IMG/VR virus record: IMGVR_UViG_3300023179_000042 | Location: 32,001 to 96,000 of that record | Length of the DNA stretch: 64,000 bases | DNA from: a virus | Strand: one strand, 5' to 3' | Position numbers and translations under genes: made by a program | Shown here: piece after piece, positions 12,756 to 16,704 of the stretch | How positions within the stretch are numbered: the first letter of the stretch is position 1 | Layout of the letters: every line of letters starts with the position of its first letter | Notes under the pieces: generated by a model | The model's input: the letters and a program-made list of their open reading frames with translations, nothing else | The model's database searches: none | What the model was told of the DNA's origin: nothing

Positions 12756-13174
12756 AGGTGAACTTTGTTCACCTGCCCTTTCGCTTGTCGCTCATGGCAA
12801 ATTTACATCGAAGATGTTTAAGTATCATCTAGATTAAGTGGTCACACTTTGCCCGCACAGGGCAAAGATTTCTGGGCATCATCTGAGTTGCACAGTCACA
12901 TAGCGTTAGAGCATTACAGTGGCGGTTGACCGGTACCACGAGCTCAGTCTTTATTCAACGGCAGGAGCATACAAATACGCTATCATTCATATGTCCGTTA
13001 GGGAATTACCCTTCTTTTTGCCTATTCATTCCTCTTCAAACAACCAAATCGCAGGTCTTAGTTAGCGATCCTCATCCTTTCGGGTAGTGGTTGAGTACTC
13101 TTAGCGGCGAGAGATTTCCGTCCCTGCGACCCGAGGTCCAGGTTTAGAGCACACGAACTTGGCCTGTGCGAGCC
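12756..13174 (-). ncRNA. Putative large structured non-coding RNA of unknown class, immediately 3' of the GIY-YIG gene
   Basis: A ~420-nt gap with no ORF in the track, GC-richer than other intergenic DNA. Many nested helices, a 7-bp pseudoknot, G-U pairs favouring the minus strand, two TGTGAC-N10-AGATGAT modules and a terminal 8-bp hairpin. Confidence 0.7.
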
Positions 13175-13609
13175 TTAACCGTTTAATTTGCCTTTGATGT
13201 GTGAGCCATGGACACGGCACTGGATATGGCCGTTGTAATATTCATCTGATTCTAAGACTTGGTGTCTAAATTGCTCTCTTGCCTCAATATAACTACATTC
13301 TGCTTTAGATTTACAGTAGTAGAGTATTTCTCGTTTAAAATTATCTTTGCCTAATTTATTAATATCTTCTGTTAGATTAGGACTGGACCCATAATATTCC
13401 TGCCAGTCACTGTCTATTTTGCTACGAATTTTTTTCTTTTTCTTGTTGCCGTTTTTTAACTTTACTGTTTTGTAGGTTGTTTTACTAAATTTTGCTAATT
13501 TTTTGCCTATGTATTTTTTATTATTTGAAATATTTGTTATGATGTAGACAAACCCTACACAATCTTCGGGTAGTGCCTCAACTAAAGAATTTTGATAAAA
13601 CCAAGACAT
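13175..13609 (-). CDS. Single-domain GIY-YIG endonuclease (T4 EndoII/Seg-like catalytic domain only)
   Basis: GFVYIITN...KKYIGKK, YYGSS, FKREIL, conserved Glu (YIEAREQ) and YYNGHI; Lys-rich insertion; no C-terminal DNA-binding domain. Confidence 0.85.
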   Translation of the reverse strand: MSWFYQNSLVEALPEDCVGFVYIITNISNNKKYIGKKLAKFSKTTYKTVKLKNGNKKKKKIRSKIDSDWQEYYGSSPNLTEDINKLGKDNFKREILYYCKSKAECSYIEAREQFRHQVLESDEYYNGHIQCRVHGSHIKGKLNG

Positions 13610-13929
13610 TATGGGTCAACATTTTCGTTCGCACCATTTTTCTTTTTAAATAACTGAGTTCGTTGTAACCGATGTTGTCTTTGTTCTCTTCTTAATCTTT
13701 TTAATTCTTTCTCACCGTGTAATTTTGTCAAATATGCTTCTCTAATACTAACCATCATTTCTTTTTCAAGCTCGCGCATTTCTTTTAGCATACGCCGACA
13801 ATCTGTACTAGATATTTCACTTACATTGGTTAAAAAAGTCGTGTGTCTGTTATAGTAGTTTACTATTAAAGAAACAAATTTGTGATATTGTTCCTTATAA
13901 TTTTCAAGATGTTGATTAGACATAGTCAA
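13609..13929 (-). CDS. Hypothetical basic helical protein, ~105 aa
   Basis: Overlaps the gp46 stop and abuts the GIY-YIG start, consistent with translational coupling. Confidence 0.6.
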   Translation of the reverse strand: MTMSNQHLENYKEQYHKFVSLIVNYYNRHTTFLTNVSEISSTDCRRMLKEMRELEKEMMVSIREAYLTKLHGEKELKRLRREQRQHRLQRTQLFKKKNGANENVDP

Positions 13930-15694
13930 TATCGTTACTATAATTGGTAAAACCGTTTTCTTTTATAACTTTCAATACATTGTTAACACGGCCAACCAAT
14001 TCGTCCTTGTGCGATATTAAGTATATATTCTTATGTCGTTCTCTGGCCATTTTCTTTAGGACCGCAAGCCCTGCTTCGACACCAGCAGCATCCATTCCGG
14101 AGTCCATAAGCTCATCAACAAACAACAAATTAATACTTTGGTAAAGTCCTTCCCAAACATCTCTAAAGGCAAAACTTAGACTTAGTATTAATCTGTTTCT
14201 CTCACCTCTTGACAAATTGTCAAAATCTAAATCTTGTCCAAGTTGTGTGATTTCAACATTTAAGTCGTTTTGGAAAACAACTCTATGCGGTAGTCCGAGC
14301 TTGTCAATGTAGTATCCAAGTCGCTTGTTTAAATAGGTTAAATTTTGATCAATAATTTTCTTACGAATAAAGCTATCTTTATTGGTTAAAAGTTTGTGTA
14401 AAAATTCTTGATGATCTTTTAGTTTGGTAAGTTCGTTAACAGTATCCCAACTGATTTCTTGAATAGCTGTAGTCTTAAGTTCATCAATTTGTTCATTAAA
14501 GGGATTTTTTTCTTCTGCTTTAGATATTAGAGTTTTTTCCAAATTTTCTAAATTGTTCTTGTGCCCTAGTGCTTCGGCTTCTGTATCGTAGTAGGTGTTA
14601 GGACGAGCAGGCATATCACCACTACCGATTTCGTCAACAATCTTTTTAAGATCCGAGGTTACTTTATTGAAATATGTTTCAGCCTCGAGCAAGTTTTTAA
14701 CGGCCGTTCCTGACATTTCTTCGTGCTTATGATCGTGTAATGCTTGCTCGCAGGCAGGGCATGTTTTATTTTTTAATTGGTCAACTTCTCGCATGTACTT
14801 GTCGCGGGTTTTTTGAGCCTGCGTAGCTGCGCTTTCTAATGTAGCTTTTTGTTTGTTGAGGCTTCGGGTCTTGTTGTCGTATTCAAGCCAGGCTTTTAAA
14901 TCTAGATGTGCCTGGAGTTCTGCTTCTATATCAACATTTTCTAAATTAACAATAGCACGACCGAGATTTTCTAATTCTTGTTGATGTTTTTGATCCCAGG
15001 CATTACTTTTTAATTGAAGACTATCAATACTTCGTTGAATATTATCATTAGCAGTTTTAATACCTTGTATTTTGAAATCTTCTTGGCTAATAAGATCTTT
15101 AGTTTCTTTAATTAGAACCTTAAGGTTTTCTGCCTTTTCACTTAGTAAGGTAATACCAAGAAGCTGTTCAATGATTTCTCGCTGATCAGCAGCCCTCATT
15201 GACAAAAAAGGCTCAGTGTAAGTATTAAGGGCTACAAGGTGCTTGAACATAGTATGTGTCATTTCGAGCATTTGTTCAATACTTTTTTGTGTTTCTCGAC
15301 TGTCGCCCTGGCTATCATCCTCTTCTTTGCTATCTTTTAACTGCTGATTATTAACGAATAACTTAAGAATATTGGGTTTACGACCACGCTCAATACGATA
15401 GATATTATTATTTTTTTCAAACTCAACGGTGACTAACATGTGCTTCCCGTTAATCTTGTTGATAAGATTTTCTTTTTTAATATTGGTTAAGGCCTGCCCA
15501 TATAGGGCGTAGCTTAGTGCGTTGGCAATGGTAGTCTTACCGGTGCCGTTTCTGCTACCTGTATCGTCGCCACCGAGATCGAGGTTAGCACCAAGAACCA
15601 GCGTTAAATGTGAGCGGTCAAAATCTACAGCCTGAGTTTGGTTGCCTACGCTCAAAAAGTTTTTTACGGTTAATGTCTTTATTTTAAACATCAA
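13916..15694 (-). CDS. gp46: Recombination endonuclease ATPase subunit (gp46/SbcC/Rad50)
   Basis: KNFLSVGN, Walker A NGTGKTT, CPAC zinc hook, LSRGE signature, LLFVDE Walker B, ISH motif. Confidence 0.96.
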   Translation of the reverse strand: MMFKIKTLTVKNFLSVGNQTQAVDFDRSHLTLVLGANLDLGGDDTGSRNGTGKTTIANALSYALYGQALTNIKKENLINKINGKHMLVTVEFEKNNNIYRIERGRKPNILKLFVNNQQLKDSKEEDDSQGDSRETQKSIEQMLEMTHTMFKHLVALNTYTEPFLSMRAADQREIIEQLLGITLLSEKAENLKVLIKETKDLISQEDFKIQGIKTANDNIQRSIDSLQLKSNAWDQKHQQELENLGRAIVNLENVDIEAELQAHLDLKAWLEYDNKTRSLNKQKATLESAATQAQKTRDKYMREVDQLKNKTCPACEQALHDHKHEEMSGTAVKNLLEAETYFNKVTSDLKKIVDEIGSGDMPARPNTYYDTEAEALGHKNNLENLEKTLISKAEEKNPFNEQIDELKTTAIQEISWDTVNELTKLKDHQEFLHKLLTNKDSFIRKKIIDQNLTYLNKRLGYYIDKLGLPHRVVFQNDLNVEITQLGQDLDFDNLSRGERNRLILSLSFAFRDVWEGLYQSINLLFVDELMDSGMDAAGVEAGLAVLKKMARERHKNIYLISHKDELVGRVNNVLKVIKENGFTNYSNDIDYV

Positions 15695-16704
15695 ATATTT
15701 CTATAAATGTCAAGAAGTATATTTTTTTCAAATTGTTCTGATTCAATGTTAACTAATTGTTCACTTACAATTTGATCTACACTTTCAAATTTTTGATCAG
15801 GATTGTCTTCAACAATTCCTTCGAGATTGATTTTATCTTGTATAAGACTAATTTCTCTGATGTCAAAGCGACCAGTGAAGTCTTCTTTGATAAAATTGGC
15901 TTCTTCGAAGCTAATATCAATATCGAGATTAACTTTTAAGTGCATTTTACTTTTCATTACTTCAGCTTCTCGATCGATTAAGTCGGAAAGTTTTATTGTT
16001 CTGTATTTTGGACAGTTATCCCAATCGATAAATCTTGGCTTTCCGCCCCATTCCATTACCATCATTCCGCGCTGATCGTCCCAGGTATCGGCAAAATTAT
16101 GCGGAAAGGCATTGCCGATGTACCAAACACGCCCTTTATTTTGGCGCTTGTGAAAATGCCCGCTAAAGATATATTCTTGATTGGTAAAGTGATCTGCTTG
16201 AAGCTCGCCGTGGTCGGGCATTTGTACCATAGCATTCATCATGAACTGTGGTAGTTCAAAATGTCCAAACATGTACTTACTGTTTATCTTGCCAATTTCT
16301 TTCCATTCGTCACCTACCAACCACGGTACTAAAGCCACATCGTCTATGACGGTAACATCTTCGACTACAGTGACGCCTGGGATATGCCTACCAAAAATAC
16401 TAGAATGGATATCGCGCTTGTCCTTAAAAAACAAATCGTGATTACCAGGAAACCAGAAAAACTGGTTAAATGCAGCTCCGAGCTTTTCAAGGCACCTAAT
16501 GCTTGAATCAAGAGTTACAAGATTTAGGCTATTGCGATTGTGGCTCCAATCGCCTAAAAATATGCCTGTGTCACAATTTTCTTTTTGTGCCTGCTCAATA
16601 AACCAATCTACAAACTCTTCGCAGTCTTTCAAGTGTGTAGCTGAGTTTCCTTTGAGTCCAAAATGTATGTCAGTAAAACAAGCAACCTTTTTAAACAAGG
16701 CCAT
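15691..16704 (-). CDS. gp47: Recombination endonuclease nuclease subunit (gp47/SbcD/Mre11)
   Basis: DIHFG, LGD, GNHD, GHFE and SGHFH metallophosphoesterase motifs; start probably MALFKK at 16704 (AGGAG SD). Confidence 0.95.
   Translation of the reverse strand: MALFKKVACFTDIHFGLKGNSATHLKDCEEFVDWFIEQAQKENCDTGIFLGDWSHNRNSLNLVTLDSSIRCLEKLGAAFNQFFWFPGNHDLFFKDKRDIHSSIFGRHIPGVTVVEDVTVIDDVALVPWLVGDEWKEIGKINSKYMFGHFELPQFMMNAMVQMPDHGELQADHFTNQEYIFSGHFHKRQNKGRVWYIGNAFPHNFADTWDDQRGMMVMEWGGKPRFIDWDNCPKYRTIKLSDLIDREAEVMKSKMHLKVNLDIDISFEEANFIKEDFTGRFDIREISLIQDKINLEGIVEDNPDQKFESVDQIVSEQLVNIESEQFEKNILLDIYRNI

Follow-up and report, generated by a model that had tools for sequence, protein, structure and literature searches.

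The Polynucleobacter-1 motif (Rfam RF01718) was described by Weinberg et al. (2010; Genome Biol 11:R31, PMC2864571), with most examples downstream of the GOS11034 gene family (similar to PSSM2_218 of cyanophage P-SSM2), a 3′ half that was not always detected, and purified phages that lacked the motif (PMC2864571 supplement). Here we analyze a locus in which this motif forms the 5′ domain of a larger RNA, positioned directly behind a 144-aa GIY-YIG nuclease gene and the gp47 and gp46 recombination genes of a T4-like phage. The locus occupies positions 12,756–16,704 of a 64,000-nt piece of IMG/VR virus record IMGVR_UViG_3300023179_000042 (record positions 32,001–96,000; “the window” hereafter means this whole piece). 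An initial annotation of the locus had proposed that the nuclease has its own RNA, as a guide or partner. On the contrary, the RNA is found in bacteria without the nuclease, an unrelated PD-(D/E)XK nuclease can fill the nuclease's slot, and RNA bodies and sequence words are swapped behind closely related nucleases. We put a probability of roughly 0.6 on the joint reading that an independent RNA gene of ~420 nt stands here beside a single-copy recombination and packaging nuclease at the operon end.

The RNA and the nuclease are independent

Among bacteria, 18 of 151 Polynucleobacter genomes carry RF01718, with complete chromosomes having one or two copies, and the RNA there is full-length (~450 nt) and carries the twin boxes, two copies of a short sequence word that are described below. 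Its setting is the same in 7/7 island loci—a divergent DUF6641 gene, the RNA, a variable open reading frame (ORF), a tyrosine recombinase, two genes of no family and an AAA ATPase—and a TATAAT-like −10 box precedes the island RNA. None of the seven examined islands holds a GIY-YIG gene, nor was a match to PF19835 (the family of the phage nuclease) found anywhere in ten RNA-carrying Polynucleobacter genomes. Within the island loci (L224–L230) the RNA lies at ~7650–8480 of each; some islands add an integrase of 430–448 aa, and two Polynucleobacter genomes have two RNA copies each, with different box words. DUF6641 was not found in the phage record, in a search run without a positive control, and a literature search returned no paper on it. 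Polynucleobacter is weakly indicated as the host genus by the binning, into an uncultured Polynucleobacter metagenome-assembled genome, of phage-like contigs (L205/L214 and L209) that carry the RNA together with gp46 and the GIY-YIG gene.

The nuclease, for its part, occurs without the RNA. Homologues in Melnitz and P-SSM4 have neither RF01718 nor gp46/47 as neighbors, and no copy of the RNA was found in cultured phages by blastn, while 494 cultured phage records have one PF19835 gene per genome, often annotated “NAD synthetase.” Co-occurrence across phage genomes had been proposed as a check on the RNA–nuclease partnership, and it largely breaks down in both directions, i.e., Polynucleobacter has the RNA alone and Melnitz and P-SSM4 have the nuclease alone. 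The “NAD synthetase” label (phrog_447; T4-GC 213; e.g., NC_006884 PSSM4_172.1) sits on mini GIY-YIG genes of T4-like cyanophages and looks like a propagated misannotation.

Within the phages, a scan for the RNA that took no account of the nuclease gene brought up five loci (Table 1) in which a PF24608 PDDEXK_15 nuclease of ~170 aa occupies the GIY-YIG slot before the RNA; in one of them (L134) the RNA starts ~10 nt past the nuclease stop codon. In the near-complete genomes sampled the two nucleases are mutually exclusive: the PDDEXK phage (85% complete) has no PF19835 gene and the two complete GIY-YIG phages have no PF24608 gene, by a search method that was validated. The PDDEXK_15 protein carries an E...D...ExK motif, its PHROG (phrog_244) is annotated as junction resolvase, and the best PDB matches of its model, which are weak (E 0.04), are the archaeal Holliday-junction resolvases Hje and Hjc. 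In one phage contig the PDDEXK gene and the RNA are separated by an RNase HI gene (L107:749–1168, minus strand; PF00075, 2.1e-44).

Nor do the GIY-YIG genes keep to one RNA. Three RNA bodies follow them: the RF01718 5′ domain defines type A, type B joins another 5′ domain to the same core, and type C is an unrelated, conserved non-coding body of 400–500 nt, such that the three together have only the twin-box 3′ architecture in common. Loci that seemed to be without the RNA gave no Rfam match and hold type B or type C elements; the type C body itself has no Rfam match. Either type A or type C can stand behind proteins that are up to 96.5% identical; of 20 nuclease pairs with at least 95% identity, 5 have different box words; and on the nuclease tree type C takes 7 changes for 7 rows, equal to shuffled labels. 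Type C elements (L004/L005/L006, L010, L017, L040, L067 and L078, with L207/L208 from marine samples) resemble type A only in the twin-box 3′ region (word ACATGAA), a GAGCG...GCGAAG motif, the terminal hairpin and TATAAATA.

What endures of the proposed partnership is adjacency. A large conserved element follows the GIY-YIG gene in 66 of the 67 loci that extend 500 nt or more beyond it, and in 39/50 related records the RNA lies directly downstream of a GIY-YIG family gene. The RNA thus almost always adjoins a nuclease in the phage clade, but it is not the exclusive property of one.

Structure of the RNA and its twin boxes

The RF01718 match is full length (model positions 1–141; 120.8 bits, gathering score 37) and places the 5′ domain of the RNA within this family. 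It starts at 13174 and the GIY-YIG gene ends at 13175, so no base separates the stop codon from the RNA. The whole conserved element extends ~420 nt, from 13174 to the terminal hairpin, and of this length 137 nt are catalogued and ~280 nt are not; specifically, the 3′ domain (12756–13037) has no Rfam match. The RF01718 motif is therefore only the first third of a ~420-nt pseudoknotted RNA. With the 449-nt gap behind the nuclease gene as nhmmer query, end-to-end homology was found in ~60 of 80 related loci, including some phages whose gp46 is only 50% identical. The RNA is present in one copy per phage genome.

That the element is a large structured RNA, as first annotated, is confirmed by covariation in 46 homologues, and the left border given for it agrees with the end of the terminal hairpin at 12756. 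The structure was tested on an alignment of 46 distinct RNA copies with 63 pairs, in which 92.2% of cells pair, compensatory change is seen in 49/63 pairs, and the covariation score is 0.443 (vs. 0.178 for shuffled and at most 0.093 for slid controls). Helices 1–6 of the 5′ domain are 92–99% paired, with compensatory changes in helices 1–4 and 6 and none in helix 5, and the 3′ domain adds hairpins, a helix and two pseudoknots (Table 1). The terminal hairpin is probably the 3′ end of the RNA; the terminator scan did not call it because a U tract is absent, and the terminator and promoter scan of the locus stayed at chance level. The RNA is not a 5′ leader, since in compact loci a convergent gene has its 3′ end right beside it. 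A proposed long-range helix of 11 bp, pairing the 5′ end of the RNA with the hairpin between the boxes, was rejected: the loop of that hairpin is free to vary, and the 5′ strand shows covariation with a local partner.

The twin boxes carry the same 7-nt word (Table 1). Their variable positions are identical between box 1 and box 2 in 46/46 sequences and their mutual information equals the entropy; across this alignment mutual information peaks only from box to box, with no internal partner for either, and the segments are apparently unpaired. The arrangement recurs in 148 distinct box-to-box units of related loci, at a spacing of 47–74 nt. Phage words are restricted to R-N-A-U-R-A-N, and bacterial copies use others (e.g., GCGAAAG). 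No further sense or antisense site of the box words was found in the window or in the 105-kb record, which represents 30% of the phage genome, and sites in three Polynucleobacter genomes are not above control level. A dimeric or twice-present outside partner would read both boxes, and the evidence suggests that this reader is not the neighboring nuclease. No known RNA class explains the constraint that the two words be identical.

Two candidate explanations of the boxes were tried and rejected. For a box C/D or k-turn, the GA dinucleotides are not conserved and the words include GATAAT, AATAAT and CATGAA. For a rolling-circle template of a repeat ORF (Neo-like), the spacing shows no multiple-of-three preference (residue classes of 36, 61 and 51 units), and the neighborhood has no reverse transcriptase gene. 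A natural single-box variant exists at L088:8275–8644, where a deletion reaches from one GUGAC module to the next; the GIY-YIG protein beside this variant is unusually divergent (53% identity).

The operon end and its nuclease

The locus is the tail of the gp55–gp47–gp46 recombination operon of an uncultured freshwater T4-like phage, and all of its genes share the minus strand (Table 1). Its source record of 105,753 bases is rated 30% complete, and complete relatives measure 345–355 kb. The gp46 and gp47 genes—an SMC-type ATPase gene adjoining a calcineurin-like phosphoesterase gene—belong to the T4 gp46/gp47 family. Coordinates confirm the described packing of gp47, gp46, a 106-aa ORF and the GIY-YIG gene, which overlap or abut (by 4 nt between gp47 and gp46, 14 nt between gp46 and the 106-aa ORF and 1 nt between the stop of that ORF and the GIY-YIG gene), with the RNA following without a spacer. 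The order sig55–gp47–gp46–nuclease–RNA was found again across related loci. The 106-aa ORF, which the initial annotation had counted as a part of the coupled locus, is not a conserved part of it: tblastn returned weak relatives (31–44% identity) in only ~12 of 80 related loci, and in most the slot between gp46 and the GIY-YIG gene is empty (~50 nt) or filled by other ORFs.

Behind the RNA stands TATAAATA, which we take, by analogy with T4, to be a candidate late promoter; it recurs behind the terminal hairpin in many aligned loci. The 250-aa protein gene that follows this T4-type late-promoter box is poorly conserved among relatives. Elsewhere in the window, the freshwater-2 RNA is another orphan motif from freshwater metagenomes that lies inside this phage.

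TABLE 1. Features of the locus and its surroundings; positions refer to the window except where a locus is named.
Feature	Position	Strand	Basis and remarks
gp55-like late sigma factor	16750..17670	minus	phrog_12791 at 1.8e-85; first gene of the syntenic block
gp47, Mre11/SbcD-like nuclease subunit	15691..16722	minus	PF00149 Metallophos; phrog_100 at 5.1e-59
gp46, Rad50/SbcC-like ATPase subunit	13916..15694	minus	PF02463 SMC_N, PF13476 AAA_23; phrog_77 at 6e-106
106-aa basic ORF, variable slot	13609..13929	minus	no Pfam or PHROG family
144-aa GIY-YIG nuclease, SegE type, catalytic domain only	13175..13609	minus	PF19835 SegE_GIY-YIG at 3.5e-33
RNA 5′ domain, Polynucleobacter-1 (RF01718)	13038..13174	minus	cmscan 120.8 bits, E 1e-25
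RNA 3′ domain, uncatalogued, pseudoknotted core and twin-box region	12756..13037	minus	homology and covariation
Hairpin	12989-12985/12976-12972	minus	3′ domain structure alignment
Pseudoknot	12982-12977 with 12906-12901	minus	6/6 pairs covary
Pseudoknot	12957-12955 with 12929-12927	minus	3/3 pairs covary
Helix	12945-12942/12912-12909	minus	3′ domain structure alignment
Twin box 1: A-A-CUC, 7-nt word AGAUGAU, then G	12877..12889	minus	alignment of 46 copies
Hairpin between the boxes, 8-bp stem, variable loop	12847..12867	minus	sequence and alignment
Twin box 2: A-A-UCU, same word AGAUGAU, then A	12823..12835	minus	alignment of 46 copies
Terminal 8-bp hairpin	12756..12774	minus	6/6 counted pairs covary, 100% pair
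TATAAATA, T4 late-promoter consensus	12741..12748	minus	read from sequence; directly after the RNA, before the next gene
250-aa Ala/Ser/Thr/Gly-rich protein gene, next after the RNA	11973..12725	minus	internal tandem repeat; no family
freshwater-2 RNA (RF02980)	2212..2295	minus	second Rfam match above gathering score, 61.8 bits vs. 49.9
PDDEXK_15 nuclease genes of related loci	L134:3963-4484, L139:2614-3126, L161:9348-9854, L119:3893-4423(-), L107:1198-1719(-)		PF24608

The GIY-YIG protein belongs to its superfamily by motifs, catalytic Glu and Asn, and fold. Across 27 sequences with identities down to 39%, residues G19, F20, Y22, Y33, G35, R93, E94, E109 and N126 do not vary; the PF19835 match covers all of the profile (positions 1–123 of 123; protein residues 3–129), and the AlphaFold2 model (pLDDT 93.5) is one domain with a long Lys-rich β-hairpin (residues 40–66). 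The description of this protein as a catalytic domain only therefore holds. A basic insertion had been singled out as well, and the Lys-rich segment is present, but it is an insertion only relative to I-TevI and typical of the whole PF19835 family. Foldseek searches with the model rank the I-TevI catalytic domain first among solved structures (1mk0/1ln0, probability ~1.0), and PDB sequence searches with either the GIY-YIG or the PD-(D/E)XK nuclease gave nothing useful.

Essentially every locus of the clade has the gene, and complete related genomes carry it once. Compared with relatives, dN is 0.14–0.26 and dS runs from 0.7 to saturation (mostly at least 1), with a dN/dS of ~0.05–0.1 that makes the nuclease more constrained than gp46. 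This combination of strong purifying selection and old divergence marks a housekeeping gene and not a recently spreading or decaying homing endonuclease. The traits of a Seg-type homing endonuclease are missing, i.e., there is no appended DNA-binding domain and the gene is not sporadic, multicopy or relaxed.

As for function, EndoVII (PF02945), the canonical resolvase, was not found in G211 (100% complete), G212 (99% complete), G208 (the PDDEXK phage), Melnitz or P-SSM4, while the same search recovered it in T4 as positive control. Petrov et al. (2010, PMC2993671) describe T4 relatives in which other nucleases take the place of gp49. Because an Hjc-like enzyme sits in the same slot of sister phages and EndoVII was not found in the relatives sampled, the GIY-YIG protein may be a stand-in for EndoVII in junction resolution, its slot being interchangeable with that of a resolvase-type nuclease. 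T4 EndoII acts in the breakdown of host DNA ahead of gp46/47, and by analogy a similar role is possible for the GIY-YIG protein.

Competing explanations and known systems

Under the reading that we favor, the nuclease slot would hold a structure- or end-specific nuclease of recombination and packaging that works in the gp46/47 pathway, a role that would explain why a DNA-binding domain is not needed, and the phage RNA, for which no promoter of its own is evident in the sequence, would most likely be made as the 3′ tail of the operon transcript. Several observations weigh against this reading. The phage-clade adjacency is very tight, with the RNA model starting 0–30 nt behind the nuclease stop codon in 74/82 loci, and wherever enough DNA lies upstream of a phage RNA, a nuclease gene precedes it; the shared 3′ region of the RNA may thus be functionally linked to “a nuclease.” As the twin-box 3′ part is kept in all types, a protein that reads only that part would escape the argument from swapped RNA bodies. 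The islands, moreover, encode another minimal DNA enzyme, a tyrosine recombinase of 188–212 aa with a catalytic domain only, which could hint at RNA plus small DNA enzyme as a theme common to both settings. Finally, the resolvase idea draws on weak structural matches (probability 0.4–0.7) and on one Pfam family that was not found.

A ribonucleoprotein nuclease, in which the RNA gives the GIY-YIG protein its target specificity, perhaps via the boxes, and so directs programmed breaks for gp46/47, is an explanation that the spacerless adjacency (66/67 loci) speaks for; in the model the Lys-rich β-hairpin could bind nucleic acid, and the lineage variation of the box words resembles a short guide. 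We nonetheless hold it to be very improbable. Each of the three lines of evidence for independence—RNA in bacteria without such a nuclease, an unrelated PD-(D/E)XK nuclease in the slot, and nucleases up to 96.5% identical paired with unrelated RNA bodies and different words—counts against it, and the wider nuclease family in cultured phages does without the RNA. The restriction of the phage word to R-N-A-U-R-A-N limits its variation, a search for matching or complementary sites found none in the 105-kb record and none above control in Polynucleobacter genomes, and the need of an RNA for specificity is not compelling, since structure-specific nucleases manage without a DNA-binding domain. It is a still slimmer prospect that the twin-box RNA is a bivalent adaptor, in which the two identical words would each bind by pairing, or mark, one member of a pair of identical nucleic-acid sites, and which would present these sites to the adjoining minimal DNA enzyme. 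If so, those enzymes would be the GIY-YIG or PD-(D/E)XK nuclease in jumbo phages and the catalytic-domain-only tyrosine recombinase in islands, the identity of the words would mirror the identical core of recombining sites, and a new class of RNA-programmed DNA cutting or joining would follow. Selfish homing is unlikely too, though conserved RNA genes are classic homing targets: here the RNA gene would be the invariant homing site, and the GIY-YIG and PD-(D/E)XK nucleases rival free-standing inserters. The membership in the SegE Pfam family, the alternation of two unrelated, mutually exclusive nucleases in one slot and the extra ORFs of 274–334 aa between nuclease and RNA (4/82 type A loci plus two type B loci) speak for it. 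Yet no nuclease-free allele was seen among ~60 phage loci with enough upstream DNA, the DNA-binding domain is absent, the family is a one-per-genome fixture of the 494 cultured phage records, and the gene's single copy, low dN/dS and dS that is mostly at least 1 or saturated indicate no recent spread. Inserts of this kind (L031:3429–4253, L054:2536–3540, L113:4369–5259 and L114:8190–9017) have no Pfam or PHROG family.

Two further explanations concern the RNA, and we would be surprised by either. As a cis-acting 3′ tail it would stabilize, terminate or feedback-control the nuclease/gp46/gp47 message or, like a type III antitoxin, neutralize the nuclease. Its start at the stop codon without an evident promoter, and its position, always at the operon end and against the convergent gene in compact loci, fit such a tail, but the island RNA stands alone behind its TATAAT-like box, divergent from DUF6641 and with no nuclease ahead, ORFs can be inserted between nuclease and RNA, and 420 nt with two pseudoknots and twin boxes far exceed what a stabilizer needs. 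In type III systems the antitoxin consists of tandem repeats that lie ahead of the endoRNase toxin; the RNA here, by contrast, is downstream, has only two partial repeats of ~13 nt that lie 47–74 nt apart, and neighbors a protein of DNase fold. A replication signal, i.e., an origin or an R-loop primer RNA used by phage and bacterial island alike, appears about as improbable as the 3′ tail. It would suit the single copy per genome, the helicase-loader-type AAA ATPase near the island RNA and the RNase HI gene between nuclease and RNA in L107. The cumulative GC skew, which had been suggested as a check on an origin or R-loop, lends no support: its minimum lies ~4 kb off, at a gene-strand switch (17.3–17.7 kb of the window), with nothing at the RNA, although this is weak evidence because phage skew follows transcription. 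Compensatory changes and G-U pairs, in addition, point to a folded RNA and not a DNA site, and the identity of the two boxes is left unexplained.

If the reading of an independent RNA gene beside a recombination and packaging nuclease stands, the claimed new ribonucleoprotein nuclease falls away. For cyanophage-type (Kyanoviridae-like) T4-like phages, the conserved mini GIY-YIG gene, or its Hjc-like swap, would then be a candidate for the missing junction-resolving or packaging nuclease. The RNA is carried by hundreds of uncultured jumbo T4-like phage contigs and by mobile islands of the probable host genus, and since island-bearing Polynucleobacter strains are culturable, the twin-box question is experimentally approachable; P. 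asymbioticus QLW-P1DMWA-1 is the strain in which the motif was found in 2010.

Compared with known systems, the locus shares with IscB/TnpB and their omega-RNA (HEARO) a small nuclease gene flanked by a large structured RNA, an orphan motif found comparatively, but the fold is GIY-YIG rather than RuvC or HNH, and the obligate co-occurrence and co-diversification of nuclease and RNA are not seen. GOLLD and ROOL are likewise large, intricate orphan RNAs on phages and mobile islands, found by comparative genomics; the RNA here is smaller, gives no sequence or model match to them and has twin boxes with an identical word. The nuclease resembles T4 Seg proteins and I-TevI in its GIY-YIG catalytic domain with motif residues intact and in I-TevI as top structural match, yet it has no linker or DNA-binding domain, is represented by one strong copy vs. 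six weak, longer copies in T4, and is near-universal in its clade under strong purifying selection. With T4 EndoVII (gp49) and Hjc/Hje it has in common the recombination operon beside gp46/47, where the Hjc-like PD-(D/E)XK nuclease alternates with it, although its fold is unlike that of EndoVII and its role as a resolvase would be a functional parallel. The nearest relative remains Polynucleobacter-1, with the same freshwater/Polynucleobacter distribution and the same position behind a GOS11034/PSSM2_218-like gene family. That upstream family is now recognized as a probable SegE-type GIY-YIG nuclease, and the RNA is present in IMG/VR phage contigs, though no cultured phage has yet been found to carry it. 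In types B and C the same 3′ architecture is joined to different 5′ bodies, and the real unit is ~3× longer than the described motif, with a pseudoknotted core, twin boxes and a terminal hairpin.

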